Shown: piece by piece, positions 849 through 21,751 of the stretch | How the letters are laid out: each line of letters starts with the position of its first letter | Numbering within the stretch: position 1 is the first letter of the stretch | Source: an uncultured Candidatus Bathyarchaeia archaeon | GTDB taxonomy: Archaea; Thermoproteota; Bathyarchaeia; 40CM-2-53-6; JALHTG01 | Direction: 5' to 3' | Assembly (NCBI GenBank): GCA_964653695.1 | Contig: CAZZFQ010000004.1 | Location: forward strand, 1-50,075 | DNA length: 50,075 nt | Position numbers and translations under genes: made by a program | Notes under the pieces: model-generated | What the model saw: only the letters and a program-made list of their open reading frames with translations | Told to the model about the DNA's origin: nothing | The model's database searches: none

Positions 849-851
849 TAC

Positions 852-1361
852 TCACCTCTCAATCGGCCTGAAGTACCTGATATCCGTGATTGCGCCTGTT
901 CTCTCTTCTGGGCGTTTCCATACTGCTTGCACCTTCATCCCGAACTTGACTTTCTTGGGATCTGTCTCTCCAACTAGGTGTAGGATGCCGGCATCAGTCG
1001 TCCCGTCAATTTGAATCACAGTTGGTATCAGTGGTTCCTTGATTCTTGTTGCATCAGCTGCGATGTGACTTATTGAGTAAGTATTGACGACCCCGCTGTC
1101 TTTGAGAATAACCCAGCGATCGTTGGGCCTGAAGCACCACTCACAGAACATCCGCGGAGGAACTACTGTCCGGCCGCATTTATCGCATTGCCTTCCAACT
1201 ATCCTAGCGTTCTTCAGTTCGGCTAGATACCTGCCTATGGCGACCCCTGCAGACCAGTTGTACTTCGCTTTTGGCCAATAACCAATTGACAGTACTTTGC
1301 CCTGCTTCAAATCTTCTTCTCTAAGCGGAGTTCCTGCGTATTCCTTGATCTTGATGCTCAT
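852..1361 (-). CDS. DUF35-family OB-fold/zinc-ribbon protein (thiolase-associated)
   Basis: 169-aa ORF with a C-x2-C...C-x2-C knuckle (QCDKCGRTVVPPRMFCEWCF) and an OB-like C-terminus ending RYFRP. It lies 12 nt downstream of the thiolase-fold gene 1374..2549. Confidence 0.8.
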   Translation of the reverse strand: MSIKIKEYAGTPLREEDLKQGKVLSIGYWPKAKYNWSAGVAIGRYLAELKNARIVGRQCDKCGRTVVPPRMFCEWCFRPNDRWVILKDSGVVNTYSISHIAADATRIKEPLIPTVIQIDGTTDAGILHLVGETDPKKVKFGMKVQAVWKRPEERTGAITDIRYFRPIER

Positions 1362-1373
1362 TTTCTCCTCCCC

Positions 1374-2549: not shown

Positions 2550-3703
2550 CTCCCCTCAGAAGTCAGGATCATAGCTGCACCACTCGCAGTTGGAATCCCT
2601 CTCCAACATTGAACAAATCCTGTTCGAGCGTTTTTCACTTGGTGCTCACCTGCCCGGTTCCGTAGTTGCAGAACCGTTTCGCAAAGCCTTTGGAGACCAG
2701 CCATCTCAAAGGTGTACCCCATTCCCAAGCTTCCTCCAGAAGCGTTCACTGGGATCTCACCGTCAGGCGCGGTTACCCCCTTCTCTGTGAGAACACCTGC
2801 CTCCCCTTCCTTGCAGAATCCCATAGCTTCAAGATGCTGAAGCTCCTTGTAGGAAAATGAATCGTCGATCTCAAGTAGGTCTAAGTCCTTCGGCCGAACA
2901 TCCTTCGCCATTTTGAACGTCTTGTCCGCAGCTACCTTCGCATATGTCGCTTCCCCCCATTCTCTTGCCTCCAAACACGGAGTGTCCGAGCACCATCCCA
3001 GTCCAAGGATCCACACAGGATCATCACAGAAGTCTTTGGCTTTCTCCTCGGACGCTAGGACGACTACGGCGGCGCCGTCGGCAGGCTCGGCAATATCCAT
3101 CTTGCCTAGGGGAAAGCAAACAGCTTCAGAAGCCAGTACATCTTGGGCCGTCGTTTGGGAGGCGTATGCTGCGTACGGATTTTCTAGCGCGTTCCTTCGA
3201 TTCTTCTCAACCACCCTTGCGCATTGTTCTCGAGTGTTACCGCTTTCGTGTAGGTATCTCATCATTTCTAGTCCTGCAACGAAGTATGGATCTGGGCCCA
3301 AAGGTCTCACATATACTGGGTCGAGTGCCAAGCTCATTATGTTCCGAATCGAGACTATCTCTGAGGGTTTGCTGTGGGCTTCGACGGCCGCCACATCAAT
3401 GAGTCCAGTTGAGATCTGCATGTATGCCGTTATTAGGCTGTAGAGTCCATCTGCGGATATTGTGCAGACAGGTTTCAAGGATGCGCCGATTTGATCTGGC
3501 ACGTATTCGTCGAATATGCTTGTTCCTTCCCAGAAGTCCTCTGATGAGCAGATGAAGCTCTGCACATCTCTTCGAGGGTCTACTCCTGCGTCGTTGTAGG
3601 CCTTGACAGCGGCCTCAAACATCATCTCTTTATATGACAGGTCGGGTGCTATCGACCTGAGCTGCGTCATCCCGACACCGATCACTGCGACCCTAGGTGC
3701 CAT
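2546..3703 (-). CDS. SCP-x/archaeal-type thiolase-fold protein with a non-canonical active site
   Basis: 385-aa ORF with VAVIGVGMTQL N-terminus and SGGSLGMGYTFEMAG, where Tyr replaces the GHP histidine. Ungapped eye alignment puts Ser (TISADG) at the nucleophile position. It is the first gene of the 4-gene minus-strand cluster. Confidence 0.8.
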   Translation of the reverse strand: MAPRVAVIGVGMTQLRSIAPDLSYKEMMFEAAVKAYNDAGVDPRRDVQSFICSSEDFWEGTSIFDEYVPDQIGASLKPVCTISADGLYSLITAYMQISTGLIDVAAVEAHSKPSEIVSIRNIMSLALDPVYVRPLGPDPYFVAGLEMMRYLHESGNTREQCARVVEKNRRNALENPYAAYASQTTAQDVLASEAVCFPLGKMDIAEPADGAAVVVLASEEKAKDFCDDPVWILGLGWCSDTPCLEAREWGEATYAKVAADKTFKMAKDVRPKDLDLLEIDDSFSYKELQHLEAMGFCKEGEAGVLTEKGVTAPDGEIPVNASGGSLGMGYTFEMAGLQRLCETVLQLRNRAGEHQVKNARTGFVQCWRGIPTASGAAMILTSEGS

Positions 3704-3876
3704 CCTTTCACCATCGGAACTGGCTTCAGGTAATCCTCATTTTCTAATTTAAGACGATCGACAATCATGACAAACTTAGCAATGCCTAGAGAGGGCCGAC
3801 TGAGACGAGTGCTGTGCCTCAATGAAAGGATTATACGCCTAGTGCTTTCAATGTCAAACCATTCAAGTGGTAGAGC

Positions 3877-5052
3877 TTGAAGAGGAGACCTCTAGCATCG
3901 ATAGTTTCAGTAGGCCTTTCCAAGTTCGGGATATTGGAAGGAAAATACTCTAGAGAGATTTTCCTTGACGCTGCGAGAGAAGCTTTTGACAGTTGCTCGA
4001 ACCTTGATCCGAAGAGAAATGTAAAGGCACTATTTGTCGGACAGATGTCTGAGTCATTCGAGCATCAGGGGCATGTAGCACCCTCGCTGTCAGATTGGAT
4101 GGGTCTTCTACCCATTCCTGCGATCAGAATCGAGGCGGCGTGTGCCTCCTCGGGTGCGGCCCTGAGATGTGCGATTTTCGCAATCATGTCTGGAGCATAT
4201 GACATCGTGGCAGTAGGCGGCGTGGAAAAGATGACCCACCGGGCCACCTCTGACGTAACAGAATACTTGGCTATGGCTTCCGATTTTCCAATGGAACAAT
4301 GGCACGGTATAACGTTTCCGGCGATCTTCGGATTGATTGCTACTGCCCACATGCACAAATACGGAACGACTGAGGAGCAGATGGCCATGGTCGCGGTAAA
4401 GAATCACCACCACGGATGCCTCAACCCTAAGGCTCAGATGCAGACCGAGATTACGGTGAAGCAGGTAATGGAATCCAAACCGATAGCGTGGCCGCTGAAG
4501 CTATTTGACTGCTCTTTGATCAGCGATGGAGCAAGCTGCTTGGTCATCACCAGACCCGATATCGCTAGACGTTTCACCGACACCCCCGTAGATATTGTTG
4601 GTACTGGGCAAGCCAGTGACACGATAGGGCTCTATGAAAGAGATGACATAACCTTCATGCAAGTCGCTCGATTGGCTGCCAAGCAAGCCTATGAGATGTG
4701 GGGCAAGACGCCTCGTAGCATAGATGTCGCGGAGGTGCACGATTGCTTTACGATAGCGGAGATAGTTGCATACGAGGATCTGGGTTTCTGTGCACCAGGC
4801 GAAGGAGGAAAGCTAGTTGAGGAAGGAGAGACACAGCTGGGTGGGAGAATCCCGGTAAACACGAGTGGCGGCCTCAAGGCCAAGGGGCATCCTGTCGGAG
4901 CGACTGGTGCTGCGCAAGCGTGCGAGATCTATCTTCAACTGACTGGGCAGGCTGAAGGGCGACAAGTCGAAGATGCGAGCATAGGCTTGACCCATAATAT
5001 CGGTGGCTCGGGGTCGACTGGGGTCGTCCACATCTTCAGGAGAAGAGGTTGA
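3877..5052 (+). CDS. Acetyl-CoA C-acyltransferase (archaeal/SCP-x-type thiolase), canonical motifs
   Basis: 391-aa ORF with the nucleophile motif AACASSGAA, plus VHDCFTIAE and GHPVGATG motifs. It is followed directly by a DUF35 gene, the classic archaeal thiolase/DUF35 pairing. Confidence 0.85.
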   Translation: MKRRPLASIVSVGLSKFGILEGKYSREIFLDAAREAFDSCSNLDPKRNVKALFVGQMSESFEHQGHVAPSLSDWMGLLPIPAIRIEAACASSGAALRCAIFAIMSGAYDIVAVGGVEKMTHRATSDVTEYLAMASDFPMEQWHGITFPAIFGLIATAHMHKYGTTEEQMAMVAVKNHHHGCLNPKAQMQTEITVKQVMESKPIAWPLKLFDCSLISDGASCLVITRPDIARRFTDTPVDIVGTGQASDTIGLYERDDITFMQVARLAAKQAYEMWGKTPRSIDVAEVHDCFTIAEIVAYEDLGFCAPGEGGKLVEEGETQLGGRIPVNTSGGLKAKGHPVGATGAAQACEIYLQLTGQAEGRQVEDASIGLTHNIGGSGSTGVVHIFRRRG

Positions 5053-5533
5053 TACGGACTTGGAATCCCCCCTAACACTTGAGAGTTTCTACGAATTCTG
5101 CGCCCAGAACAAGTTGATGGGCGCAAGATGCAAATCGTGCGGAGCAATTCTGGTACCACCTAGAGCCGTCTGCCCCAAATGCGGCTCAACAGATACGCAA
5201 TGGACAGAGCTTAAAGGAACTGGAAAGCTCTTGACGTACTCAGTGGTGCATGTGGCCCCGCGAGCCTTTCAGCCATTCGTACCCTACGCGGTTGGGATAG
5301 TCCTGCTCACTGAGGGTGCTAGGCTCCCAGGAATGATCCGAACTGATCTGAAAGATCTCAGGATAGGATTGGTCCTGAAGGCCGCCTTTGACCCTGCTCA
5401 GTCAGAGAGCTGGCCTTCTTGGGCAAGATACTACTTTGTGAGAGCCGGCACTCTGAGAGAGTACACAGGTCACTCATGTTGGCGGAAACATCCAAGTGGA
5501 CTAGCGCTTCCGTCTTTTCATGAAGCACTTTGA
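5003..5533 (+). CDS. DUF35-family OB-fold/zinc-ribbon protein
   Basis: Contains ARCKSCGAILVPPRAVCPKCGS followed by an OB-like region. The ORF-track start at 5003 overlaps the thiolase by 50 nt. A TTG near 5060, after an AGGAGAAGAGG string, is a more likely start. Confidence 0.75.
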   Translation: MARGRLGSSTSSGEEVDTDLESPLTLESFYEFCAQNKLMGARCKSCGAILVPPRAVCPKCGSTDTQWTELKGTGKLLTYSVVHVAPRAFQPFVPYAVGIVLLTEGARLPGMIRTDLKDLRIGLVLKAAFDPAQSESWPSWARYYFVRAGTLREYTGHSCWRKHPSGLALPSFHEAL

Positions 5534-5649
5534 AGAAAATTGACACAGCGATGACACCTGCAAGTGCGTCTACAATCGACTCCTAAGGATCACGGGGCAT
5601 TCGCAGAAGACATCGCTGCAATTGCTCCGATCCTTCGGAAGCAACCAAG

Positions 5650-6231
5650 TTATGACAGTAATCTTCGAATTAGTCTCAGCACCAGTAGAGGAGAGATTAT
5701 CATCGTGCTCAAAACCAATGTTCCAGTTGAAACCATGGCTATGAACTCTGCGATGCTTATTTGACCGATGTAGAGAAACACGTATGACATCCCGAGGGCG
5801 AGGAGTGAAACGAGCCAGACTAAGGCCAGAGGCCTCAACGACATTCCGCTCTTCTTTCGTTTGTCGTCTGCTTTGACTGCGCCAAGGGCGATAATAGGCG
5901 ACGCGTATAGAAGCCCGAGGAGTGAACCTGAGACCAGGCCTGCCATAAGTACTCCGATCTCTGATTGTGGCTGGCAGATGTCGAACAGGGCTTGTCCGAG
6001 GCTGAGTGATCCAAGTAGTGGAGACAGTAGGACTCTTACGGCGGCTCTGGCAGTATCGCTTGCCGATATGAGTTCTGCTAGAGACGGGCTGAACGAGTAG
6101 TAGAACGCGTTGAATGCCTTCATGAACTGTGATCCCGCAAAGCTGCTCAATACGCGGCGATCTCTAAACTCTCTTAGAAACTGCACATGTGGTGAGAGCT
6201 CTGACTCGTATGCGGCTGAAGCTATGAGACA
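5650..6231 (-). repeat. Coding repeat: shared C-terminal Cys-box/FNAFYYSFSP anchor module, copy in gene 5650..7920 (extended version, 193 aa)
   Basis: Begins at the Cys codon (plus-strand ACA at 6229-6231). Contains the shared DNA string GGGCTGAACGAGTAGTAGAACGCGTTGAA starting at 6086. Confidence 0.85.
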
Positions 6232-7920
6232 TCTGCCCGGCGTTACAGCACGAGTCGTGGTTGTTGTCGCGGTGGTGGTTGCCGATGTAGTGGAGGTTGT
6301 GGTGGATACGGATGTTGAAGTTATGGTCGTTGTCGTCGTTGTGCTTGTGGAGCTGACGCTGTAGAAAGTCGTGGTTGTACTGACCGATACTGTCCAAATG
6401 TAGCTTGTCGAGGTGGCTAGGAACGTGAATATCGACATCGTATACGTGAACCCAACAGTCGTGTTTGTCGTCGTGGTCGTAGCCATCGCCGTGTAGATGA
6501 AGGACGTACTGGTTACAGGTATCCACGTGACGGTCGTGGTCCACGTGGATAGCGTAGAAGTTGTTGTGGTCGTATAGACCACCAAGGTTCCAGTTCTCGT
6601 CGTTGTTGCCGACGCAGTTGTTACAACGAACAAGAGTGGGCTCATTAGCGGGAAGAAGTCTTTGCTGTTCTTCGGACCGGAAAGCGTGTACGGAGTATCT
6701 CCGATTCCGTCGTTGTTGTTGTCGAAGCCGCTGTAGGCTGACCAGTAGTTTCCTCTCGAACCATCGTCCCATGCTATCGTTGTGCCATTGTCCCATGCTT
6801 GGATACCGGCCGGCTGTATACAGGGCAGCGAGTGAAGACCATTGTTTCTTATGTCGTTTCGATAGGTCTGGCACAGAGTCGTGACGTTTCCAAGTTTAGA
6901 GCCTACAACTATTCCTGCGAAGTCGTTGAGGTATATATCATTGAAGGTGATTCGCACGTTCCTTGCGCTCTGCATGAAGATTCCGGTGCCATTCGTGGCG
7001 GCGCTGTGTATCCTATTGTTGTAGATGGTGATGTCTTTGTTCTCGTAGTCTAGGCTTGTGTCATTGGACCTCCGCAAATATATGTTTCCTCCTGTTCCGT
7101 TTGTGGCTCTCTGATAGTTTGCATACATGATGTTTCCAGCGATCTCCAAGCTCTGAACGTGGTCCAGTCTGATCGCTGAGAGATGACAGTTGTATATCGT
7201 GTTGTCCCTGATCTTGTTGTCTATGTTCATAGAGCTTCCAATGGAACCGTTGATGACTATGCCTTCTCCCCTATTGAAAGGGGGAGAAGGAGGTCCGATC
7301 TTGTATATGGTGTTCCGCGATATCTCGTTCCTTTGGCATCCTTGCCTTAGGCAAACCGCGGACTCCGAATTCTCATAGATCTCGTTGTCAGTGATCATGT
7401 TTCCCTCAGCTGCGCTGATGAGTATGCTGGCAGAATTGTATCGTATTATGTTGAAGGTAATTATGTTGTTGAAGGAGCCGTATGCACTGATCGCTGTTCT
7501 GGCGTTCATCATATAACAGTAGCTGATGGTGCTTGGTCTGGTCGCACTGTAAAGGTAGATTCCTGCCCACTTGTTGCGATCGGTTCCGCCATCCTTCCAA
7601 GCGAATGTGATACGGTTCCCTGCTGTTCCAGAAGCTGCCAGCTTACCTCGTACCGTTAGGTTATAGTAGCCGTCGAAGTAGACTATTACCCCTGGCTCTA
7701 TGGTCAGGCTCTCATCGGTTGGGATAGTGACGTCTCTCTTTACGTGAAACGGGCTGTCAATAATCCTCCAGACCCCTCTTACAATTCCGTCAGAAGGATT
7801 CACGTCAGTTCCATAAGCTATTCTTATCTGCTCAATCATGAGTGATGAAACGATAATTCCCACGGCTATTAGGATAAGCAGCCAACATCTTCTCATTGAG
7901 ACAGCTCCGCGCGAGACCAA
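5650..7920 (-). CDS. Membrane-anchored surface protein: NosD/PbH1-like right-handed beta-helix head + Thr/Ser stalk + shared C-terminal Cys-box anchor module
   Basis: 756-aa ORF with an N-terminal hydrophobic segment (MRRCWLLILIAVGIIVSSL). It has repeated beta-helix turns (..ITDNEIYEN.., ..ISRNTIYK.., ..IRDNTIYNC.., ..IYNNRIHS.., ..ITFNDIYLN..) ending in GNYWSAYSGFDNNNDGIGDTPYTL, a motif typical of NosD-like domains. A Thr/Ser-rich stretch follows, then CLIASAAYESELSPHVQFLREFRDRR...FNAFYYSFSP and several C-terminal hydrophobic helices. The likely true start is the ATG at 7896. Confidence 0.75.
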   Translation of the reverse strand: MVSRGAVSMRRCWLLILIAVGIIVSSLMIEQIRIAYGTDVNPSDGIVRGVWRIIDSPFHVKRDVTIPTDESLTIEPGVIVYFDGYYNLTVRGKLAASGTAGNRITFAWKDGGTDRNKWAGIYLYSATRPSTISYCYMMNARTAISAYGSFNNIITFNIIRYNSASILISAAEGNMITDNEIYENSESAVCLRQGCQRNEISRNTIYKIGPPSPPFNRGEGIVINGSIGSSMNIDNKIRDNTIYNCHLSAIRLDHVQSLEIAGNIMYANYQRATNGTGGNIYLRRSNDTSLDYENKDITIYNNRIHSAATNGTGIFMQSARNVRITFNDIYLNDFAGIVVGSKLGNVTTLCQTYRNDIRNNGLHSLPCIQPAGIQAWDNGTTIAWDDGSRGNYWSAYSGFDNNNDGIGDTPYTLSGPKNSKDFFPLMSPLLFVVTTASATTTRTGTLVVYTTTTTSTLSTWTTTVTWIPVTSTSFIYTAMATTTTTNTTVGFTYTMSIFTFLATSTSYIWTVSVSTTTTFYSVSSTSTTTTTTITSTSVSTTTSTTSATTTATTTTTRAVTPGRCLIASAAYESELSPHVQFLREFRDRRVLSSFAGSQFMKAFNAFYYSFSPSLAELISASDTARAAVRVLLSPLLGSLSLGQALFDICQPQSEIGVLMAGLVSGSLLGLLYASPIIALGAVKADDKRKKSGMSLRPLALVWLVSLLALGMSYVFLYIGQISIAEFIAMVSTGTLVLSTMIISPLLVLRLIRRLLS

Positions 7921-7926
7921 TTGAGG

Positions 7927-8358
7927 CTATCCGTGCCCTATCCGTCGCCAAGACAGGGCTTGATTCACCGCTCTCTTGATGTCACCTTTCCTTCTGATTA
8001 CGCATCTAATTCCCATAACGGGTAGTACAAATGAAACGATCCCAACTAGAGCGCCGGAAAACAGCCCTAATGCGACCACCCCAAGTTCTGGAGCAAAGCC
8101 TAGCGCATTGAAGACGGATGATGAGACTTGAAGGATATATATCAACGGGTATACTAAGGCACGGACCACCGCCGCCAGAACTGGTGACGAGGCGATTATT
8201 GAGGCAACGGTTGGGCTGAACGAGTAGTAGAACGCGTTGAAGATCTTCATGAATTGCGCCCCAGCGAAGGTCGATAGGATTTTCCTGTCTCTGAACATTC
8301 TGAGCGACTGAACTTCTGGTGCGAGCTCTGACCCGTACGCTGCTGAGGCTATTATACA
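7927..8358 (-). repeat. Coding repeat: shared C-terminal anchor module, copy in gene 7927..10173 (143 aa)
   Basis: An identical 29-nt string GGGCTGAACGAGTAGTAGAACGCGTTGAA starts at 8213. The protein motif is CIIASAAYGS...FRDR...FNAFYYSFSP. Confidence 0.85.
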
Positions 8359-10173
8359 TGGTCGTATGGGCAGAAAGGTCGTGAAGGTTGTGGCCGTCGA
8401 TGTCAAAGTCACTGTCGGCGAGTACGAGGTTGTTGTGGTCGCGCTGGCTGATGTTGTGGTTGTTGAGGTTTCCTTTGTGGTGGTAGAAGTGAGTGTCACG
8501 GTTGGAGAGTACAAGGTTGTGTTCGCCTTGGTCGTCCTCGTTGTCGGCACCGTTACCGTGGGTGAGAAGATGGTTGACACCTGTGTGGCGGTTGTTGTTG
8601 ATGATGTGGTCTCTGAGAACCAAGATATGGATATCGCAGTTGCGGTCGTGAGTGTCGTGACGCTTTCCCAAGAGGTCGAAACGTATGTAGCGGTTATCGA
8701 CGTAGTTGTCGATGTGGTCTCTACAGAAACCAAAGATAACGTGTAGGTTGTGGTGGTCGTCGTAAATGACGTGCTTGAGGTGTAAGTGTATGTTGTGCCC
8801 CAATAGGTTGGTGAAGTTAGGACAGTGCTTACTGTGTCGACGATGGTCGAGCTTGCGGTTGTAGCGCTGGCTGTGACCGGTGTCTTTGTTGTTGGTGTTG
8901 TCGCAACAACAGCAGTCGATGTCGATACCATCGTGGGCGATGTAGTGACGGTAAGGACGGTTGAAGATGTGGTCACAGCATAGGAAATAGAGTATACAGT
9001 GGTTGTGACTGTTGGACCTTCAGGCTGCCTCAACCTTCCTATTCTTCTTCCTCCGTACTCCGTGAACCACACATTGATTGTCCCCGCCGCCTCACTCACC
9101 ACCGCTAAACCTTGGGGCTTAGCGGTTGGAGTGATGACGGAGTATTCCGTGAACGTGTTTGCAACTGGGATGTATTTTCCGATTTTATTGGCATAGTCTG
9201 AGAATTCGGTGAACCATACGTTGCTCTGTGAGTCGAGTTCGACTTCGTGAACTTCACTGTTAGGTGTAGGAACCCTGAAGATAGTTAGCGCCCATCTCGA
9301 GGTCTCATATGCGACTGGATTTAACCTGCCAATAATATTCTCGTCAGTGCCGACTCTTTGAGCAGTGAACCATACCATTCCGTCTGCATCGACCGCTAGA
9401 TCCCATGGATTGAAAGGATCGATTGAGTACGCTCTGAACTGTCCTGTTTCAGGGAGGAATCTGACTATGCTTTTCCTTGAGAAGTCAGCATACCATATGT
9501 ATCTCTGGGTCGGAGCCGGTCCAGTTGTGTCGAGTACGATGCCGATTGGATTCGATCCTGATATCGGAATCGGATATTCAACAAATGACGATAACCAGCT
9601 TCCCGCTATGGGAAAGCTGAACCTGCCAATCTTGCCCACTGCATACTCAGTGAACCATGTGCAATTCCGCCATCGATCATGGACTAACTTGCGTGGGCCA
9701 CTTCCAAGCGTTGGAATCGCGTACTCTGCTATGTTATGCGTGTTGTTTCGCGCCACGACTCCTATCTTGTTCGCATAGGCTTCGGTGAATACTGCTGCGG
9801 TCGCCGGCCAGTCCACAGTTGTGATAGCCCACGGCTGGCTGTTGAGCGTCGGCACGGGGATCTGCCTAAGCGTGCCATCGGCATAGTTTAGGCGGCCTAT
9901 ATTGTTACCGGCGCTTTCTGTGAACCAAACAAGCGGTGACGTTCCGTCCACACTTAGATCCCACAAGCCCGGATTACCTGGCACGACATATTCTGTAATA
10001 GTCGCGGCTTGAGCTGGCGTAAAGAAGAGCCCTGCAAGAAATAGTGCGGAAGCCACTCCAGCGATCCTACGCACGCCACATTTGGCTAGAATGTTGCCAG
10101 AATGGCCACGCCGAGCGAATAGGCCAAGGAGTAGACACACTGTAAAGCCAGAAAGGCACACTATCGGTGACAA
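7927..10173 (-). CDS. Membrane-anchored surface protein: Vgb (virginiamycin B lyase)-like 7-bladed beta-propeller head + Thr/Ser stalk + shared C-terminal Cys-box anchor module
   Basis: 748-aa ORF. Seven blade repeats of the WFTE-x(4-6)-N[KR]IG[RK] type are visible (VWFTESAGNNIGRL, VFTEAYANKIGVV, TWFTEYAVGKIGRF, IWYADFSRKSIVRF, VWFTAQ..NIIGRL, VWFTEFSDYANKIGKY, VWFTEYGGRRIGRL). A stalk of roughly 200 aa follows, then CIIASAAYGSELAPEVQSLRMFRDRK...FNAFYYSFSP plus hydrophobic helices and a basic tail. An SD-like AGGAGGAG lies 9 nt upstream of the TTG start. Confidence 0.8.
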   Translation of the reverse strand: MSPIVCLSGFTVCLLLGLFARRGHSGNILAKCGVRRIAGVASALFLAGLFFTPAQAATITEYVVPGNPGLWDLSVDGTSPLVWFTESAGNNIGRLNYADGTLRQIPVPTLNSQPWAITTVDWPATAAVFTEAYANKIGVVARNNTHNIAEYAIPTLGSGPRKLVHDRWRNCTWFTEYAVGKIGRFSFPIAGSWLSSFVEYPIPISGSNPIGIVLDTTGPAPTQRYIWYADFSRKSIVRFLPETGQFRAYSIDPFNPWDLAVDADGMVWFTAQRVGTDENIIGRLNPVAYETSRWALTIFRVPTPNSEVHEVELDSQSNVWFTEFSDYANKIGKYIPVANTFTEYSVITPTAKPQGLAVVSEAAGTINVWFTEYGGRRIGRLRQPEGPTVTTTVYSISYAVTTSSTVLTVTTSPTMVSTSTAVVATTPTTKTPVTASATTASSTIVDTVSTVLTSPTYWGTTYTYTSSTSFTTTTTTYTLSLVSVETTSTTTSITATYVSTSWESVTTLTTATAISISWFSETTSSTTTATQVSTIFSPTVTVPTTRTTKANTTLYSPTVTLTSTTTKETSTTTTSASATTTTSYSPTVTLTSTATTFTTFLPIRPCIIASAAYGSELAPEVQSLRMFRDRKILSTFAGAQFMKIFNAFYYSFSPTVASIIASSPVLAAVVRALVYPLIYILQVSSSVFNALGFAPELGVVALGLFSGALVGIVSFVLPVMGIRCVIRRKGDIKRAVNQALSWRRIGHG

Positions 10174-10178
10174 GCTGA

Positions 10179-10562
10179 CTATCTCCTCCTCGGCTTCTTC
10201 CTTAGGGCTTTCAATAAGAGTACAATCGGCGAAATGTAGATCGTGCCAATCAGCGAGCTCGCCAATGTGCCCGCCAAGAGAACCATCAGTTCTGGATTCA
10301 ACTGAAGCGAGTTAAACATCCATTCCGCCGAACGTAGCGAGGCGACAAGAGGATACATAAAGACTCTGGTGATCGCTTGGAGCGCCGGACTTGCCCCTGT
10401 CAGCTCTGCAACTTTCGGGCTGAATGAGTAGTAGAAGGCGTTGAAGACGCGCATGAACTGAGCGCCGGCGAGTGTTGACAATACTGCTCGATCTCTGAAC
10501 ATTCTGAGGAACTGTACTTCTGGAGCAAGCTGCGAACCATACGCAACAGATGCAATCACACA
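10179..10562 (-). repeat. Coding repeat: shared C-terminal anchor module, copy in gene 10179..12341 (127 aa)
   Basis: A near-identical string GGGCTGAATGAGTAGTAGAAGGCGTTGAA starts at 10417. The protein motif is CVIASVAYGS...FRDR...FNAFYYSFSP. Confidence 0.85.
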
Positions 10563-12341
10563 TGGGCGGGTGACCCCGACCGTTGTTGTTGTCACGGTTG
10601 TCGTTGCGAGAATTGAGGTGCTGACCGAGGTCGTAGGAGTAACAGAGGTACGGACGGAAATCAATGTGACCGTTGGTGAGAACGTCGTCGTCGCTATGAA
10701 TGACGTGTTCCCTAGTATGACAGTGACAGTCGGGTAGTTTAAGGTCGATGTTGCGGTGACCGTAGTCGTTGTTGATGAAGTTGAAACAATGACAATCGTA
10801 TTTGTTCTTGAGGTTGTCGAAGTGGTTGGTTGAACCATCCAAGATGTGAAAGTGGCGGTTGTGGAAGTAGTGGTAGGAAGCGTTGAGACGCTTACGATTG
10901 TCTGTGTCGCGGTGGTGGTTGTAGTCGTCGTGGTATATGAGGTTGACCAGGACGTCATCGTATAACTGTAGATGCTCGTGGTTGTCAACTGGAGCATACT
11001 GCTTGTGAAGGTGTACGTCGATGTTACGAGTGTCGCAGAAGCGGCCGCCGAGCCTATCGTGTTGATCGCGGCGACGATAGAAGCTGCCGAAGAATTGGTG
11101 TAGGCTCTGCTTGTCGTCATGGTCCGACTCGTCATCACAGCTGAGGATATTGTTCCAACTGTTGTGGTTGTGACGAGCGGGGGCGCGGACCAGCCGTATA
11201 TCGATCCAACTTTCTGAGCAAACGGCTCAGTAAACCACACTGTTCCATAGGGTCCCGAGACCGCCACGCCATGAGGCCTTCCGCCTACAGAGATAATGGG
11301 GTATTCAAAGAAGACATTTAGCCCAGGATCGTATCTTGACACTCTGTCACTACTATATTCTGTAAACCAGACATTCAGTACTGTGAATGGCGGGATGGTC
11401 GTTGCTTCAATGGCCAGTTCGCGGGGTTCTGAGTTAGGAGTTGGAACCGCAAAGGTCACGTATTCGCCTGAGACAGGGTTCAGTCTACCTATGCAGTTTC
11501 TCTTACTCTCGGTGACCCACACGAATCCATTCGGGTCTACTCCGATTCCCCACAAGCCGCTGTCAGGCGTTGTCGCGTAGTGTCTGAACAAGGCTGTGCC
11601 GTTCTCCAACAGCTTGATCGAGCTAATTCGATTAGTCCCGTATTCTGTGAACCAGATCGAATAGTCCATTGGACTCATGGCGATACAGAGGGGCTGAGTA
11701 TTCACTCCGGGCGTCGGGTAAGGTACTGAGTAGAACGAGAACCTCACATTAGTCGCGCCGTGAGTTTCGTTGCCGTATAGGTGGCCGATACGGTTTCTAC
11801 CCCACTCAGTGAACCAGACATCATACCTTGGGGTCTTCCCGTTCGACATCTTCGTTATGTTCATCGTTATGCCTCGAGGCCTCGCTTGGAATTGGTCGGG
11901 GAGACCCCATTCGTAGAACTTCTGTTCTGACGGTGCGTACCGAGCTATCTTACCGTGTGTTTCCTCGGTTACCCAGATGTCTTCGTGATCTTTACTGGCA
12001 GTTATTCCCCAAGGGATGGCGCCAACTGTCGGTATGTCCATTTGATAGAAGGGGACAGATACCTTGGCTATCCTGTTGGCGCCCTGCTCGGTGATCCACA
12101 CGGCGCCGTCCTTGTCTATGGCTATTCCCCAAGGAACGGGCGTGCCTGTCAGTCCATACTCGTAGACGATCACTGCCCTAGCTGGGGTCAGCAATAGTCC
12201 AGCTAGGCTTACCAGACAGATCAACGCGAGAAGTGCTCGCACTCGGATGTGCGTGCTCCTATCGCGCTTGTGAGAAAGGAAGAGAGCGATCGCGCCTGCG
12301 TTGAGGAGTACAAGCCAAGTCGCTGCCCACAAGCAAACCAC
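10179..12341 (-). CDS. Membrane-anchored surface protein: Vgb-like beta-propeller head + Thr/Ser stalk + shared C-terminal Cys-box anchor module
   Basis: 720-aa ORF with blade motifs (VWITEQGANRIAKV, IWVTEETHGKIARY, VWFTEWGRNRIGHL, IWFTEYGTNRISSI, VWVTESKRNCIGRL, VWFTEYSSDRVSRY, VWFTEPFAQKVGSI). A Thr/Ser stalk follows, then CVIASVAYGSQLAPEVQFLRMFRDRA...FNAFYYSFSP, hydrophobic helices and an RKKPRRR tail. Confidence 0.8.
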   Translation of the reverse strand: MVCLWAATWLVLLNAGAIALFLSHKRDRSTHIRVRALLALICLVSLAGLLLTPARAVIVYEYGLTGTPVPWGIAIDKDGAVWITEQGANRIAKVSVPFYQMDIPTVGAIPWGITASKDHEDIWVTEETHGKIARYAPSEQKFYEWGLPDQFQARPRGITMNITKMSNGKTPRYDVWFTEWGRNRIGHLYGNETHGATNVRFSFYSVPYPTPGVNTQPLCIAMSPMDYSIWFTEYGTNRISSIKLLENGTALFRHYATTPDSGLWGIGVDPNGFVWVTESKRNCIGRLNPVSGEYVTFAVPTPNSEPRELAIEATTIPPFTVLNVWFTEYSSDRVSRYDPGLNVFFEYPIISVGGRPHGVAVSGPYGTVWFTEPFAQKVGSIYGWSAPPLVTTTTVGTISSAVMTSRTMTTSRAYTNSSAASIVAAINTIGSAAASATLVTSTYTFTSSMLQLTTTSIYSYTMTSWSTSYTTTTTTTTATQTIVSVSTLPTTTSTTATFTSWMVQPTTSTTSRTNTIVIVSTSSTTTTVTATSTLNYPTVTVILGNTSFIATTTFSPTVTLISVRTSVTPTTSVSTSILATTTVTTTTVGVTRPCVIASVAYGSQLAPEVQFLRMFRDRAVLSTLAGAQFMRVFNAFYYSFSPKVAELTGASPALQAITRVFMYPLVASLRSAEWMFNSLQLNPELMVLLAGTLASSLIGTIYISPIVLLLKALRKKPRRR

Positions 12342-12353
12342 ACGCGCGATCCT

Positions 12354-12749
12354 TCAGTTCTCCTCGCGTCTTCTCCCAAGTCTCCTTGAACATAGGCTTG
12401 CTATGGTTGCGAGCGGAGTGACGTAGACTACCCCGATCAGCGCCGATGCCGCAACTCCAGAGGCTGCTATGGCGAACTCCGATGTGGAGCTGAACACACC
12501 GAATACCGTTGACGCTGACCGAAGCACTACTACCAACGGATAAAGAAGTACCTTCACAGCCTCTCGCAGGATCTGATACTGAGTGACCGATGAGGCTACC
12601 GCCGGGCTGAACGAGTAGTAGAATGCGTTGAAGATCCTCATGAAGGAACTGCCCGCGAATGTTGCTTCAACGGATTGGTCTCTGAACCCTCTGAGGAACT
12701 GCACTTCGGGCTCCAGTTCTGATCCGTAAGCCGCCGAGGCGATTAAGCA
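12354..12749 (-). repeat. Coding repeat: shared C-terminal anchor module, copy in gene 12354..14405 (131 aa)
   Basis: The string GGGCTGAACGAGTAGTAGAATGCGTTGAA starts at 12604. The protein motif is CLIASAAYGS...FRDQ...FNAFYYSFSP. Confidence 0.85.
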
Positions 12750-14405
12750 TCGGCGCACAGTGGGCGTGACAGTGACAGTCGTCAGATAGGTCGTGATAGA
12801 CGTTGATGTGGATGTTCCCGTTGTATAGGTCGTTGTCGTGCTGAAGCTGGAAGAGGTTGAAGTCCAAGATGTAACAACCATGCTTGTGATGGTTGGTGAA
12901 AATGTCGTCGTAGGATAGGTTACAGTCGTAGTCGAGGAGGAGGTCTCAGTAGTTGTCGATGTGGTCGTTGTGGATGTGGTTGTCGTCGTTGTAGATGTCT
13001 CTGTCGTTGTTGAGGCCTGCGAAGTTGTAGTTGTGGTCGTCGTAGTGGTTATGGTTGTACTCGTTGATGTCTGCGTACTCGTTGTTGTCGAGCTAGTGTA
13101 TAAAATCGATTTGGTTTCAGTGATTGTAGAACTCGTTATCGACCAAGCTGTTGCAGTGGAGGTGGTGTAGGCGGTTGCGATAGACGGGGACGTTGGAGAT
13201 ATAGTAGTTCTCGCCGAAACCGTTGCAGCTGCCGTTGATGTCGGAGACGCATGGCTTATCCAGTCCACAGTCGTAGTCTTCGTGTCTACTCCTCCGGCCA
13301 TCCACGCTGGCTGGAACACCCTTCCAAGCCTGTTTGTCTGCGCCTCAGTGAACACTATCGTGTCAGAGGAATGTATGCAGATTCCGTATGGTTGGCTTCC
13401 CGGAGTCGGAGTTGGATATTCATGGAAGTTGGCAGTTCCAGGAACGAACTTTCCTATCTTCGATGTGGCGAACTCCGTAAACCAGACATTACGATCTTGG
13501 TCAACTACTATCTGGCTGGGGCTCGATCCACCTGTCGGTATCACCCAGCCAACCGTCTCGTTCCTCCACCAGTTCAGACGGCAAATCATGTTGGTTCCGA
13601 TCGACGTGAACCATACGAATCCGTCTTGGTCGAACGTTACTCCGTTCGGTGAGGACGGGACTACGTAGCCTGTGAACTCTCCCTTCCAAGGATTGAAGCG
13701 TACTACGTGGTACGATCCGATAGCGGTGAACCAGACTATCCCGTCGCTATCTACCGTTAGGTGATGCGGTCCGCTGATCCCCGGCGGGATTGGATACTCG
13801 GTCATCTGCCATCCAACTCCCCCTAAGTACGTTAGCTTTCCAATTCGATTAACCATGAACTCCGTGAACCATACAGTTAGCCTAGGCCTGTCAATTGCAA
13901 TATCGCGAGGTTCTGCTGCGGCCGTGGTCGTTCGCCACTCCACGAACTCTCCGCTGATTGGATTTAGCCTGCCGATCTTGCTTCCGACTGACTCAGCAAA
14001 CCAGACAAATGTGCCTGTGTCTGTGTATATCTCTGGCCCCAACGCGATGCCCCAAGGATTGGATCCTTGGGTTGGAATCGCCCACTCTGTGAATTTCCCT
14101 GCACCCCATTCGACAAGTCCGATCCGGTTGCTCATCTGCGCCGTGTAGAACGCACGGTTCGCCGAAACGTCGCAGGCAACCTCCCACGGACGTGCCGGGC
14201 CAGTCGAATGCCAGTACTCAGCGATCACAGCAGCGCTAACAGGAGTGATCAGCAGCCCGATAAGGAATGCTGATGAGGCTAATAGGCTCAGTCCTCTAAA
14301 CCACATCTTGGATCTCGGACACTTCAACCAACCCGTCGCAAATAGAACTAGGAACATGCACACGTTGAAGCCTATGAAGCCGACCATGCTCTCCAAATCA
14401 AACAC
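12354..14405 (-). CDS. Membrane-anchored surface protein: Vgb-like beta-propeller head + Thr/Ser stalk + shared C-terminal Cys-box anchor module
   Basis: 683-aa ORF with blade motifs (FYTAQMSNRIGLV, VWFAESVGSKIGRL, VWFTEFMVNRIGKL, VWFTAIGSYHVVRF, VWFTSIGTNMICRL, VWFTEFATSKIGKF, IVFTEAQTNRLGRV). It has an extreme Thr stalk (TTTTTTTTTSQASTTTETSTTTTTTSTTTTSTTTE), then CLIASAAYGSELEPEVQFLRGFRDQS...FNAFYYSFSP. Its start overlaps the upstream gene's stop. Confidence 0.8.
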   Translation of the reverse strand: MFDLESMVGFIGFNVCMFLVLFATGWLKCPRSKMWFRGLSLLASSAFLIGLLITPVSAAVIAEYWHSTGPARPWEVACDVSANRAFYTAQMSNRIGLVEWGAGKFTEWAIPTQGSNPWGIALGPEIYTDTGTFVWFAESVGSKIGRLNPISGEFVEWRTTTAAAEPRDIAIDRPRLTVWFTEFMVNRIGKLTYLGGVGWQMTEYPIPPGISGPHHLTVDSDGIVWFTAIGSYHVVRFNPWKGEFTGYVVPSSPNGVTFDQDGFVWFTSIGTNMICRLNWWRNETVGWVIPTGGSSPSQIVVDQDRNVWFTEFATSKIGKFVPGTANFHEYPTPTPGSQPYGICIHSSDTIVFTEAQTNRLGRVFQPAWMAGGVDTKTTTVDWISHASPTSTAAATVSARTTISPTSPSIATAYTTSTATAWSITSSTITETKSILYTSSTTTSTQTSTSTTITTTTTTTTTSQASTTTETSTTTTTTSTTTTSTTTETSSSTTTVTYPTTTFSPTITSMVVTSWTSTSSSFSTTTTYTTGTSTSTSITTYLTTVTVTPTVRRCLIASAAYGSELEPEVQFLRGFRDQSVEATFAGSSFMRIFNAFYYSFSPAVASSVTQYQILREAVKVLLYPLVVVLRSASTVFGVFSSTSEFAIAASGVAASALIGVVYVTPLATIASLCSRRLGRRREEN

Positions 14406-14790
14406 CTCCTGAAGCTATCACCCTTCTGCGAAAAGCCTTCAGCAGAATCACAATTGGTGAAACATATGCTACACTGACCAGGGCACTCGCAAGGATCCCC
14501 GCAACCATGACCATCAACTCTGGCGCCTGCGGACAGAGCTGATAGACTGATGCCGTTACGCGAAGTGAGGCGACTAGCGGATAAATGAGAACTCGGACGA
14601 TAGCTTGGAGAGTCGGATTCCCAGCTACTATCTCCGCTACATTCGGACTGAAGGAGTAGTAGAACGCGTTGAAAGCCTTCATGAACTGGGCGCCAGCGAA
14701 TGTTGACATTACCGCTCTATTTCTGAACTCTCTAAGGAGCTGGACTTCTGGAGCAAACTGCGAGCCATACGCCGCAGACGCAATGACGCA
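14398..14790 (-). repeat. Coding repeat: shared C-terminal anchor module, copy in gene 14398..16611 (130 aa)
   Basis: The string GGACTGAAGGAGTAGTAGAACGCGTTGAA starts at 14645. The protein motif is CVIASAAYGS...FRNR...FNAFYYSFSP. Confidence 0.85.
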
Positions 14791-16611: not shown

Positions 16612-16639
16612 AGAAGTAAGGTTATACCTTTGGATAGGC

Positions 16640-16647
16640 TATATAAT
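16640..16647 (-). promoter_or_regulatory. Candidate archaeal TATA box for the five-gene surface-protein operon
   Basis: The minus strand reads ATTATATA, centred about 32 nt upstream of the GTG start at 16611. This spacing fits a very short leader. It lies within a 405-nt AT-richer intergenic region. Confidence 0.35.
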
Positions 16648-18537: not shown

Positions 18538-19731
18538 TTGTTGACTGAGAAGAGTTGGGGCTCACCAATTCCAAAAGACTTGGCTGAGATTCTGCTTGTC
18601 TCAGGAATAATACTTGCTTTCGGCTTCTGGGAGCACTTCCCAATGATAGTGCCTAACCACTACACGGATATAGCAAGCATATTCTGGAGAGAAGGTATAG
18701 GGAAAGGCCGCCTCGGGATCCCTTACTACGACTACGTTTTTGAATACCCTGTGATCGTAGGCTTCTTCACGTATCTCTGCTCATACTTTGGCAGGTCGAT
18801 GTCAGGTGACTTTGGAATCTCCATGGCTTTCTACTCTTTCGGGATGTATCTTGTGTTGATCGCGTTTGCGCTGGGAACAGTAGTCGTTGTCTATAAGCTC
18901 TGTGAGCTAGTAGGGGCTGACAAGAGAAGGATGTTCCTTTACTTTCTTGTGACGCCCGCGTTTATCATGTTCACGATATATAACTGGGACATATTCGCGG
19001 TCTTCTTTTCGGCTCTCTCGATCTACTTCTATCTCCGTGGACAGAAACATTATTCCGCGATCAGTCTGGGGCTTGGAATAGCCTCCAAGATCTATCCCGC
19101 GGTTTTAGGTCCGATCTATCTTCTTGAGGAGAAGACTTGGAAGGCGAGGCTCGTGTTCTTTGCTCTTGCGGCCGGTGTCTTCGCGCTTCTAAATGCGCCG
19201 TTCATCATCTTGAAGTATGATGTGTGGTTTGGGACTTGGCGACATCATATGACCTGGGGGATTGAGAACTCGTGGTTGATCTATCTCTTTGATCAGATGG
19301 ATCCGAACGCGCACTACGCCAGCTTGTTGGTCCTGCTGTATCTGGTCTACAAAGGAATAGCGGGAACTATCAAGAAGGACTACGGTTCACAAGCCTCCAG
19401 AATCTTGGAACGATCATTCTTGATGAGTTTGGCCTGGCTCATAAGCTCGTATGTCTGCCCACCCCAGATGGCTCTAATGATTCTGCCTTTTCTGGTCCTG
19501 ATGCCTCTTGCACCTCTCTGGCTGTTCTACTTGGCTGAGATCTTCAATGCGCTGATCATAGTCTTGTGGTTCACTCCTCAACTGAATCTTGGAAATCCTC
19601 TGGTGGCAAGTAGCCCGGTGCAGGCGTTCTCCGCGATGAGACAGTTGATATGGCTACTGTTCTTCTTGATGGTGCTGTACCCGGGAAAGCTTAAGGTCTG
19701 GACTGAAGATCTTTTTGCAAGGATCAGATAA
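18538..19731 (+). CDS. Polytopic membrane protein, GT-C-fold glycosyltransferase candidate (DUF2029/GT87- or PIG-V-like)
   Basis: 397-aa ORF with about 9-11 hydrophobic helices. The first loop carries acidic and aromatic residues (HYTDIASIFWREG...IPYYDYVFEYPVIVGFFTY), as in GT-C mannosyl/arabinosyltransferase-like families. The family assignment is not verified. Confidence 0.5.
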   Translation: MLTEKSWGSPIPKDLAEILLVSGIILAFGFWEHFPMIVPNHYTDIASIFWREGIGKGRLGIPYYDYVFEYPVIVGFFTYLCSYFGRSMSGDFGISMAFYSFGMYLVLIAFALGTVVVVYKLCELVGADKRRMFLYFLVTPAFIMFTIYNWDIFAVFFSALSIYFYLRGQKHYSAISLGLGIASKIYPAVLGPIYLLEEKTWKARLVFFALAAGVFALLNAPFIILKYDVWFGTWRHHMTWGIENSWLIYLFDQMDPNAHYASLLVLLYLVYKGIAGTIKKDYGSQASRILERSFLMSLAWLISSYVCPPQMALMILPFLVLMPLAPLWLFYLAEIFNALIIVLWFTPQLNLGNPLVASSPVQAFSAMRQLIWLLFFLMVLYPGKLKVWTEDLFARIR

Positions 19732-20444: not shown

Positions 20445-20594
20445 TTGAGTTGGGCATGCAGGAGCTTTCATGTCGACCTTGATTTGAAGGACTCCTACGA
20501 CAAGGCTATTGTCTACTTGCTCGCAATCAGTCTTGCGCTAAGACTCGTGTGGTTGGACATGCCAAAGGGCAGCCTAATATTCGACGAGAGGTAG
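20445..20594 (+). pseudogene. Detached N-terminal fragment (TM1 + FDE motif) of the PMT-like glycosyltransferase, in a different frame from 20549..21751
   Basis: This frame is open from 20427 to a TAG at 20592-20594. It encodes ...DLKDSYDKAIVYLLAISLALRLVWLDMPKGSLIFDER*, the first TM helix and the loop-1 (F)DE motif of PMT/GT39-like enzymes. Candidate TTG starts are at 20445 and 20484. It is shorter than the ORF-track cutoff. Confidence 0.55.
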
Positions 20595-21751
20595 CGGCAG
20601 ACGCTATCCGTCATTGGTACTACGTGAATGCTGCCCGAAACATCTTAGGTTTGCCCCAAAGCATTGGGGGGGAAGGAAAGCCTCCATACCCTGATGCTGT
20701 GAAAGGCTTAGATCCCAATCACGAACATCCTCCACTTGCCAAACTCATAATTGCGTTCTCGATGTGGTTCATTGGAAACAATGAGTATGGGTTTAGGCTT
20801 CCAAGCGTGCTGTTTGGGACCTTATCCATACTAGTGTTCTATCTGCTACTGAAGAGAGTGAGTGGTGATAGGTTGCTGTCGCTGATGGCAACATTTCTCT
20901 TTAGCTTTGACAACCTCGTCTTTGTGCATAGTCGGATAGCAACCTTGGATATATTTGTCCTCTTCTTCATGATTCTTGGATTCTACTGGTACTTTGGAAG
21001 GAAGATGGTGTTGAGCGGGGTTGCGTTTGCCCTGTCAACACTATGCAAGATAGGAGGACTGTATGGGGTTCTAGCTGTCGGCTTCTGGCATGTGGGCAAA
21101 GCTCTTTTTGGCAAGAAGGAAAGCTCGGGTCAGCACTCTTTGATGCGCAGGCTCGAGGATCTCGAGCGACTCGTCATCACATGCGGCACAAGCTTTGTCG
21201 GGCTTCTTTTCCTGATGGATAGGCTCTGGGTCGGGTACGCCAACCCGATAGAACACATAACATTCATCCTGAACTACACTCGGGCGTTGACAGCTCCTTT
21301 TCCCACAGGGATACAAAGCTACCCATGGCAGTGGTTACTTAACCAAGTCCAGATCCCGTACCTCAAGGTAGACGTGAACAAGATAGTCGATGGTGCTGTC
21401 GTGGGAACTTACACTTCAGTCCACTTTGAGGGAGCCATGAATCCACTTATAATCTACCTGACGCTACCAGCAATCCTCTATACTGGATACCTATTCTTCT
21501 CGAGAAGGAATGACGTTTCACTACTTGCGATCGCGTGGTTTGCTGGGACCTATCTACCATTCATTCCAATGGCCCTTCTATGGAATAGAATAATGTACCT
21601 ATTCTACTTCCTCAACACGATCCCAAGCGTATGCATAGCCATAACCTCAATGGCATTGGATCAGAAGCCTCCGAAGATAATCATGGGACTATATCTTCTG
21701 GCTGTCGTCGGAATGTTCGTGATGATGTTTCCATTCAAAGCCGTGCCCTGA
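20549..21751 (+). CDS. Dolichyl-phosphate-mannose-protein mannosyltransferase-like (PMT/GT39-like, GT-C) membrane glycosyltransferase, N-terminally disrupted
   Basis: 400-aa ORF with YYVNAARNILG...DPNHEHPPLAKLIIAFSMWFIGNNEYGFRLPSVLFGTLSILVFYLLLKR, a pattern typical of PMT-family loop 1/TM2-3. Multiple further TM helices follow. The expected preceding TM1+FDE is encoded in another frame (see 20445..20594). Confidence 0.7.
   Translation: MVGHAKGQPNIRREVAADAIRHWYYVNAARNILGLPQSIGGEGKPPYPDAVKGLDPNHEHPPLAKLIIAFSMWFIGNNEYGFRLPSVLFGTLSILVFYLLLKRVSGDRLLSLMATFLFSFDNLVFVHSRIATLDIFVLFFMILGFYWYFGRKMVLSGVAFALSTLCKIGGLYGVLAVGFWHVGKALFGKKESSGQHSLMRRLEDLERLVITCGTSFVGLLFLMDRLWVGYANPIEHITFILNYTRALTAPFPTGIQSYPWQWLLNQVQIPYLKVDVNKIVDGAVVGTYTSVHFEGAMNPLIIYLTLPAILYTGYLFFSRRNDVSLLAIAWFAGTYLPFIPMALLWNRIMYLFYFLNTIPSVCIAITSMALDQKPPKIIMGLYLLAVVGMFVMMFPFKAVP

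Follow-up and report, generated by a model that had tools for sequence, protein, structure and literature searches.

Does the conserved C-terminal module shared by five adjacent genes of an uncultured Candidatus Bathyarchaeia archaeon, which in every copy begins at an invariant cysteine (Cys), act as a signal that is recognized and processed by a dedicated enzyme, or does it attach its protein to the membrane for good? The copy of interest lies at positions 7927-8358 (minus strand) of a 50,075-nucleotide stretch of contig CAZZFQ010000004.1, to which we refer as the window, and encodes the last 143 residues of a predicted secreted β-propeller protein. An earlier note, made from the letters of the DNA alone, had put this module forward as a candidate sorting or anchoring signal. 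Our analysis places all five tails in an already catalogued protein family, NF041770 (CFI-box-CTERM), and we consider it fairly probable that the tail combines a permanent membrane anchor with a folded juxtamembrane domain.

The Five Tails Are Members of NF041770

The five genes are arranged head-to-tail on the minus strand (14398-16611, 12354-14405, 10179-12341, 7927-10173 and 5650-7920), in an operon-like tandem array with stop/start overlap between genes. Their translations have a common layout, in which a signal-peptide-like hydrophobic N-terminus is followed by a globular domain, a long Thr/Ser-rich stretch (113-201 residues, with Ser and Thr together accounting for 57-73%), and the conserved tail. 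The globular domain is a Vgb_lyase/NHL-type β-propeller in four of the genes (PF24684, E = 8e-36 to 9e-47), and a right-handed β-helix/NosD-like domain takes its place in gene 5650-7920. As read from the five translated open reading frames (ORFs), the motif runs from C-[ILV]-IAS-[AV]-AY-[GE]-S through FR[DN][RQ] to FNAFYYSFSP. The motif, the number of copies and their coordinates are as the earlier note had described them, with the Cys codons (6229-6231, 8356-8358, 10560-10562, 12747-12749 and 14788-14790, all on the minus strand) forming the upper ends of the five intervals. In all five genes, 127-193 residues separate the Cys from the stop codon, and the basic tails of the window copies include RRKGD, RKKPRRR, RRLGRRR and RRR. 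When the six-frame translation was searched with a hidden Markov model (HMM) of the five tails, the window yielded no sixth copy.

All five tails score well above the curated NF041770 cut-off of 40 bits (66.0 to 73.5 bits; individual values for the other paralogs are given in Table 1), with matches spanning HMM positions 1-68 or 1-69 of 69; in the 7927-10173 protein, the match scores 70.3 bits over residues 606-678. Beyond the score, every feature of the family is present, namely the opening Cys motif, the L-R-x-[FW]-R-D and Y-Y-x-x-S-P motifs, and the C-terminal position, and the opening-Cys column aligns with that of the family members named in RefSeq. The tails are new members of this curated family, the biochemistry of which is uncharacterized, and the CFIATAAYG-type motif to which the earlier note had likened the opening exists as NF041770. 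No Pfam model covers the tail, and an NCBIfam scan of the tails returned no family besides NF041770. An RNA-based reading of the locus was dropped because Rfam gave no match across positions 5000-17500.

Conservation and Selection

Alignment of the five modules contains 36 invariant columns, with Cys present in five of five, and this bears out the claim that the tails form a distinct conserved C-terminal unit that starts at this residue. The paralogs are 66-77% identical over the 56 residues following the Cys, compared to 33-39% in their propeller domains, and the β-helix paralog has only the stalk and the module in common with the other four. Over the corresponding 56 codons, nonsynonymous divergence (dN) is 0.15-0.30, while synonymous divergence (dS) ranges from 0.8 to >2.5 or is saturated. 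This marks the module copies as old and as maintained by purifying selection, so that recent gene conversion is ruled out as the source of their similarity.

The conservation of the Cys that had been seen in the paralogs extends to their homologs. It is kept in 94/94 homologs that reach this column, in 144/144 representatives of clusters at 50% identity, and in 34/35 copies from related genomes, the one replacement (by Ser) being found in a degenerate Bathyarchaeia copy (L009 9446-10453) that also carries Asn-to-Asp and Ser-to-Asn changes at otherwise invariant positions. A 125-sequence alignment of the module shows that R23 and R26 are invariant (with D27 in 118/125 sequences), as are G36, F39, F43, Y47, Y48 and S51 in the helix that contains FNAFYYSFSP, and P74 and L79 in the helix that contains R-x-x-L-Y-P-L. 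In the membrane helix, G101 is kept in 125/125, S105 in 114/125 and G109 in 122/125 sequences, Y112 and P115 are also nearly invariant, and columns 125-130 mostly hold R or K. When archaeal and bacterial members are aligned together (alignment A6), eight residues are invariant across both domains: C1, G9, R20, R23, D24, Y40, S44 and P45. The position before the Cys, by contrast, is unconstrained (Gly 28%, Arg 21%, Pro 14% and Ala 10% among 322 sequences; Pro in two of the window paralogs), which argues against a lipobox-like or intein-like cleavage site at the Cys.

Module Anatomy and Predicted Fold

Using the same 125-sequence alignment, AlphaFold2 predicts the long form of the module (5650-6231) to be all-helical (mean predicted local distance difference test (pLDDT) score of 90.0, predicted template modeling (pTM) score of 0.80), with seven helices at model residues 5-10, 16-30, 34-60, 62-88, 94-131, 136-162 and 165-195. 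The first five of these helices recur in the model of the 7927-8358 tail (pLDDT 85.8). Neither model resembles a PDB entry by fold: the best Foldseek E-value was 0.72 for the long form, and the short form returned nothing. A sequence profile likewise found no match among PDB chains.

We estimated the membrane propensity of each helix from a rough Hessa-scale sum over 19-residue windows. On this measure, module residues ~92-110 (sums of -0.9 to +1.2) and both additional helices of the long form (-1.6 and +2.1) are predicted to span the membrane, the helix containing R-x-x-L-Y-P-L (about +4 to +9) is marginal, and the helix containing FNAFYYSFSP (+7 to +10) is not membrane-spanning alone. The short form, which occurs in the four propeller genes, thus has one clear membrane segment at residues ~92-110 with a marginal helix before it, and gene 5650-7920 has two more, located after a basic patch; this refines the earlier description of one or two hydrophobic helices. 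In either form the Cys lies ~90 residues upstream of the first clear membrane helix, with four predicted helices in between. Among the closest cluster representatives, 127/144 have 180-200 residues after the Cys, which makes the long form of gene 5650-7920 typical of this lineage and the propeller paralogs the carriers of a shorter version.

A Widespread Core, with and without a Membrane Anchor

A profile of the first 92 residues of the module (alignment A4), searched against 1.84 billion cluster representatives at 50% identity, matched 23,036 clusters at 1e-3, 9,681 at 1e-10 and 511 at 1e-30, with the CFI-box core being present in both Archaea and Bacteria. A protein search with the divergent module of locus L022 gave only 11 matches and added nothing. 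All of the closest genomic relatives are metagenome-assembled genomes, assigned to Bathyarchaeia, other Thermoproteota, Nitrososphaerota and Wolframiiraptor. The same gene array with the same flanking genes is kept in one Bathyarchaeia genome (loci L001, L021), which makes a Bathyarchaeia origin of the window the most likely one on sequence grounds as well. Carriers are also often encoded singly, with several per genome and unrelated passenger domains. The 81 full-length relatives contain 76 Pfam families as passengers, the commonest types being immunoglobulin-like, PKD, filamin, MG2, β-helix, propeller and carbohydrate-binding domains, and a variety this wide is what would be expected of a general surface-protein anchor. 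In addition, several module-only fragments are labeled by the Joint Genome Institute (JGI) as "peptide/nickel transport system substrate-binding protein", a hint that a CFI-box tail is present on some of the proteins annotated as binding proteins.

Comparison with the RefSeq-named members of the family (from Haloquadratum, Cupriavidus, Acinetobacter and Aeromonas) shows that these and the window copies share C-[FILV]-I-A-[TS]-A-A-[YF]-G-S, L-R-x-[FW]-R-D and Y-Y-x-x-S-P. The form found in Bathyarchaeia and Thermoproteota differs from other NF041770 members by a four-residue insertion (FNAF) and by a longer, more hydrophobic fourth helix, and in its usual version it has two further membrane helices that fall outside the 69-position model, while canonical bacterial members have ~100 residues after the Cys. 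In Geobacteraceae, Nitrospiraceae, Thermodesulfovibrionia and Hydrogenedentota, a Gly-rich linker leads into CFIATAAYGS and the core, after which come a single membrane helix and an Arg-rich tail. When metagenomes were scanned for CFIATAAY, at least 600 matches were obtained, from which 80 loci were kept and all counts taken; these have a median of 101 residues after the Cys, a membrane-like helix in 62/80 and a basic tail in 67/80, although the sample is biased to membrane-helix forms, having been selected with a query that includes a membrane helix.

A tblastn search against plasmids revealed the same core in Bacteria and in one haloarchaeon, often in proteins that RefSeq names CFI-box-CTERM. 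On plasmid PL47 of Haloquadratum walsbyi (L027 5218-6252) the core follows an Mrr_cat nuclease and a WYL domain, on a Burkholderia cenocepacia plasmid (L029 3653-4234) it follows a cold-shock domain and a Cys-rich zinc-ribbon-like segment, and in Cupriavidus and Aeromonas (L026 5815-6228; L031 3815-4234) it is found in proteins of 137-139 residues encoded on conjugative or mobilizable plasmids. We note as a side observation that these small proteins are encoded within ~3 kilobases (kb) of conjugal-transfer (TraG/TraH) genes. None of these plasmid proteins has a signal peptide or a membrane helix after the core, and their core helices give sums of +13 to +18, which is far too polar for a membrane; judged by their sequences, these fusions look cytoplasmic. 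An exclusively secretory role for the core is not supported by these proteins. We conclude that the core is an independent small helical domain, which in most but not all members precedes a membrane anchor.

The family is a large known unknown, with more than 23,000 sequence clusters in two domains of life, no solved structure and no PDB fold match. Working out the role of its Cys would explain how enzymes are retained at the surface of many uncultured archaea (including Bathyarchaeia) and bacteria, and would make clear if NF041770 is rightly given a "-CTERM" label, with its implication of a sorting signal.

Search for a Partner Enzyme and Neighboring Glycosyltransferases

Pfam and NCBIfam scans of the ~45 ORFs of the window found no sortase, archaeosortase, exosortase, rhomboid or CPBP protease, in agreement with the earlier observation that no sortase-like gene is recognizable there. 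The polytopic protein at 18538-19731, which had been singled out as the only nearby candidate partner, is a GT87-like GT-C glycosyltransferase and no sorting protease, and we rejected it as a sorting enzyme on the basis of its Pfam assignment. We then clustered the neighbors of carriers at 105 loci (25 genome loci and the 80 kept metagenome loci), and found no recurring candidate sorting enzyme or other partner gene beside the carriers in this set. The largest neighbor "family" (38 loci) was rejected, as it consists of antisense ORFs overlapping carriers, and the next two largest clusters are two-component regulators and ATP-binding cassette (ABC) ATPases. The 45 polytopic neighbors within 6 kb of carriers likewise show no recurrence beyond the GT87-like gene in three close relatives. 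Two single adjacencies were seen, namely a generic exosortase two genes from a bacterial carrier (L037) and an Rce1-like neighbor (L023), the latter with a score of 21 bits against MrtA, the model for archaeal myxosortase (NF040590, cut-off 200); by a rough estimate, this is about as many as chance would give.

What does stand beside the array is a trio composed of the GT87-like gene, a gene for a small secreted protein and a gene for a PMT-like protein O-mannosyltransferase (Table 1). This trio is found near carriers only in three close Bathyarchaeia relatives, with all three genes in L021 and L006, and the two glycosyltransferases alone in L005. Based on the proximity of these GT-C genes, we infer that the GT87-like and PMT-like enzymes probably O-glycosylate the Thr-rich stalks. 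Elsewhere in the window (35917-38001), a DUF2330 protein adjoins a DsbD/CcdA-like membrane protein, of a type that transfers thiol-reducing power, and we found no link between this protein and the CFI-box Cys.

Anchor, Sorting Signal, or Assembly Device?

In the reading that we favor, a Sec-type signal peptide would export the N-terminal domain, and the Thr/Ser stalk, probably O-glycosylated by the neighboring GT-C enzymes, would space this domain from the membrane, while the single membrane helix and the Arg/Lys tail would stop transfer and hold the protein permanently in the cytoplasmic membrane. The CFI-box core, which comprises ~90 residues in four helices and starts at the Cys, would then be located between the stalk and the membrane helix, probably on the outer membrane face, where it may make a specific contact, either by self-association or by binding lipid head groups. 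Such a specific interaction is suggested by the invariant R-x-x-R-D, N and Y-Y-S-x-S-P residues, together with the G-x-x-x-S-x-x-x-G face that the membrane helix presents. An anchoring role fits the order of signal peptide, passenger, Thr-rich stalk, module, membrane helix and basic tail, and the length of the module (127-193 residues), its confidently predicted fold and purifying selection that extends through the membrane helix are hard to square with a tail that is cleaved off and discarded.

Several observations nevertheless weigh against a permanent, purely structural anchor. Such an anchor leaves an invariant Cys positioned exactly at the domain boundary without explanation, and this boundary Cys recalls the Cys-containing sorting signals that are processed by myxosortases. 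The presence of the core in relatives lacking a membrane helix shows that it does more than span a membrane. The topology is also less certain than a single-helix scheme suggests, since the two 27-residue helices could instead insert into the membrane as a hairpin, and the charge distribution fits a one-helix or a three-helix topology alike. Moreover, the neighborhood test is a weak one, because the genes of sorting enzymes frequently lie apart from those of the substrates, and a literature search returned no paper that names CFI-box-CTERM or contains its motif. The paper that defines Cys-containing C-terminal sorting signals makes no mention of CFI-box-CTERM. Possible roles for the Cys are lipid modification, folding or assembly, or recognition by an unlinked enzyme.

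The most serious competitor to a permanent anchor, although we regard it as unlikely, is a processed sorting signal, in which an enzyme encoded elsewhere (a CPBP/Rce1-like myxosortase, an archaeosortase or a rhomboid) would recognize the CFI box, after which the Cys would be lipidated and the tail cleaved to leave a lipid-anchored protein. Lipid anchoring with tail cleavage has been demonstrated for PGF-CTERM, and a similar course has been proposed for MYXO-CTERM and for CGP-CTERM. The CFI-box module resembles the signals of myxosortase substrates in its invariant boundary Cys, its C-terminal position, its membrane helix followed by an Arg-rich cluster (both elements being frequent among the kept metagenome loci) and its many unrelated passengers, with several carriers per genome. 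A low-complexity linker precedes it, Thr-rich (in archaeal examples, Thr/Ser-rich) in archaea and Gly-rich in bacteria, as in CGP-CTERM proteins. The "-CTERM" name is the NCBIfam convention for putative sorting domains, and the Rce1-like and exosortase genes near two carriers can be counted on the same side. However, the tripartite signals of myxosortase substrates are only 20-40 residues long and their Cys motif directly abuts the membrane helix, whereas the CFI-box module extends over 100-190 residues with a confidently predicted fold (127-193 in the window), ~90 of which form a helical domain between the Cys and the membrane helix. Any of several residues may precede the Cys, neither the window nor the 105 loci show a cognate CPBP gene linked to carriers, the two single adjacencies are near chance level, and some members, which have neither a signal peptide nor a membrane helix, bear cytoplasmic domains that bind DNA or RNA. 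Taken together, the anchoring half of the original proposal stands, as it fits the architecture, whereas the likeness to a sorting signal is unproven and sits poorly with the distance and the predicted folded domain between the Cys and the membrane helix; we would give only a small chance to the looser idea that the tail may work broadly like Cys-containing sorting signals.

Somewhat less likely again is an assembly device, in which the core and the glycine-zipper membrane helix would bring carriers together as homo- or hetero-oligomers (the five co-encoded paralogs being an example), with anchoring as a secondary effect. The nearly invariant G-x-x-x-S-x-x-x-G spacing in the membrane helix is consistent with this possibility, as is the operon-like tandem array with its stop/start overlap and its conservation in related genomes, and oligomerization would also suit the core on cytoplasmic proteins. 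The same small-residue spacing, however, suits intramolecular helix packing equally well, and carriers are often encoded singly. We consider it quite improbable that the core is a self-sufficient membrane-attachment domain of a new kind, the first Cys of which undergoes modification or cuts the chain with no need of a dedicated sorting enzyme, even though this would explain why the domain always starts at Cys, why there is no linked partner, and why the core occurs on both exported and cytoplasmic plasmid proteins. Even less credit is due to a self-processing anchor proper, in which the Cys would attack the preceding peptide bond (N-to-S acyl shift) and either free the passenger or move it to a lipid with no enzyme involved. 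Here too, the domain start being always exactly Cys and the lack of a partner gene in the neighbor survey would be accounted for, and Gly-Gly-Cys-Phe, which is frequent in bacterial members, resembles the Hedgehog cleavage site. Yet the fold is predicted to be all-helical, unlike the β-rich Hint and intein domains with their Cys1 and Thr-x-x-His motif, there is no invariant His and no Thr-x-x-His motif in the module, and the Cys is often preceded by Arg, Lys or Pro, the last of which blocks intein-type cleavage when placed directly before the Cys. Finally, the idea of a plain membrane anchor that is similar among the five genes only through recent duplication or gene conversion has the tandem arrangement of the paralogs in its favor, but it is refuted by the saturation of synonymous sites at low dN, by the contrast in identity between module and propeller, and by the 23,036 clusters elsewhere that match the core. 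The β-helix paralog, which shares only stalk and module with the others, argues in the same direction, as does the neighboring gene 19812-20402, which shows what a plain anchor of this genome looks like, and we assign this idea a next to negligible probability.

Other archaeal and bacterial systems help to place the favored reading of a permanent anchor with a folded juxtamembrane domain. In the PGF-CTERM/archaeosortase A and PEP-CTERM/exosortase systems, including ArtA of Haloferax, archaeal surface proteins reportedly carry a C-terminal anchoring region after a glycosylated Thr-rich linker. The five tails likewise follow a Thr-rich linker, but neither a PGF nor a PEP motif occurs in them, the length of the module is several times greater, and no archaeosortase or exosortase gene is present within the 50 kb window. 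The solute-binding proteins of Sulfolobus ABC transporters consist of a signal peptide, an extracellular domain, a Ser/Thr-rich linker and a C-terminal membrane helix, and the carriers have the same order of signal peptide, linker and C-terminal helix. The bacterial lipobox ([LVI][ASTVI][GAS]-C), by comparison, ends an N-terminal signal peptide, unlike the CFI-box Cys, which lies near the C-terminus and is preceded by a variable residue.

Features and Other Genes of the Window

Table 1. Positions in the window of the gene carrying the studied tail, the predicted parts of its module, the paralogous modules, and neighboring genes given as context
Feature	Positions	Strand	Details
ORF with propeller carrying the studied tail	7927..10173	-	748 aa, longest ORF, start uncertain; signal peptide, PF24684 (1.9e-45), stalk, CFI-box module
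Thr/Ser-rich stalk	8359..8961	-	201 aa, 41% Thr, 16% Ser (composition)
CFI box, Cys codon 8356-8358 then IIASAAYGS	8329..8358	-	predicted short helix, model residues 5-10
Helix with L-R-x-F-R-D motif	8278..8328	-	predicted; model residues 16-30
27-residue helix with FAGxxFM..FNAFYYSFSP	8188..8268	-	predicted; model residues 34-60; rough sum +7.8, no membrane helix alone
Marginally hydrophobic helix with R-x-x-L-Y-P-L, probably at the membrane interface	8101..8184	-	predicted; model residues 62-89; rough sum +3.9
Predicted transmembrane helix, G-x-x-x-S-x-x-x-G spacing	8011..8085	-	rough sum -0.9; Kyte-Doolittle 2.48
Arg/Lys-rich tail, predicted cytoplasmic by the positive-inside rule	7930..8010	-	stop codon 7927-7929; from the sequence
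Long-form module of the β-helix/NosD-like paralog (gene 5650-7920)	5650..6231	-	193 aa; NF041770 73.5 bits; two extra membrane helices (predicted) after basic patch
Short-form module, paralog 10179-12341	10179..10562	-	NF041770 66.1 bits; alignment
Short-form module, paralog 12354-14405	12354..12749	-	NF041770 66.0 bits; alignment
Short-form module, paralog 14398-16611	14398..14790	-	NF041770 70.1 bits; alignment
GT87-like GT-C glycosyltransferase (context)	18538..19731	+	PF09594 GT87 (1.4e-09)
Small secreted protein, plain membrane anchor (context)	19812-20402	+	
PMT-like protein O-mannosyltransferase, GT-C (context)	20549..21751	+	PF02366 (3.1e-11), PF13231; NF058602 (4.3e-19), below curated cut-off

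Two further observations concern the array itself. ORFs overlap the stalks, at 8006-8803 (minus strand, another frame) and 8366-8746 (plus strand), with similar ones over the other stalks, and these look like by-products of repetitive Thr codons, an effect that also gave rise to the false 38-locus neighbor "family". In addition, a conserved hydrophobic stretch precedes the signal peptides of three propeller paralogs (~10080-10173, 14300-14405 and 16510-16611, minus strand); it reads E-L-E-P-I-x-x-x-G-F-N-[IV]-C... and is kept in the orthologs of L001 and L006. This stretch could be either an N-terminal membrane helix or conserved intergenic DNA that happens to be in frame; the start codons are uncertain.

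The remainder of the window includes, at 366-5533, three thiolase-like genes, each accompanied by its own gene of the ChsH2 type (OB-fold/zinc-ribbon, DUF35-like), a cluster that is kept in L001. A β-oxidation-like cluster at 22761-28215 comprises an acyl-coenzyme A (CoA) dehydrogenase, two CoA-transferase subunits, a 3-hydroxyacyl-CoA dehydrogenase and an AMP-binding enzyme, and the minus strand at 31161-34160 encodes a 999-residue protein that combines type I phosphodiesterase/nucleotide pyrophosphatase and glycoside hydrolase family 39 domains.

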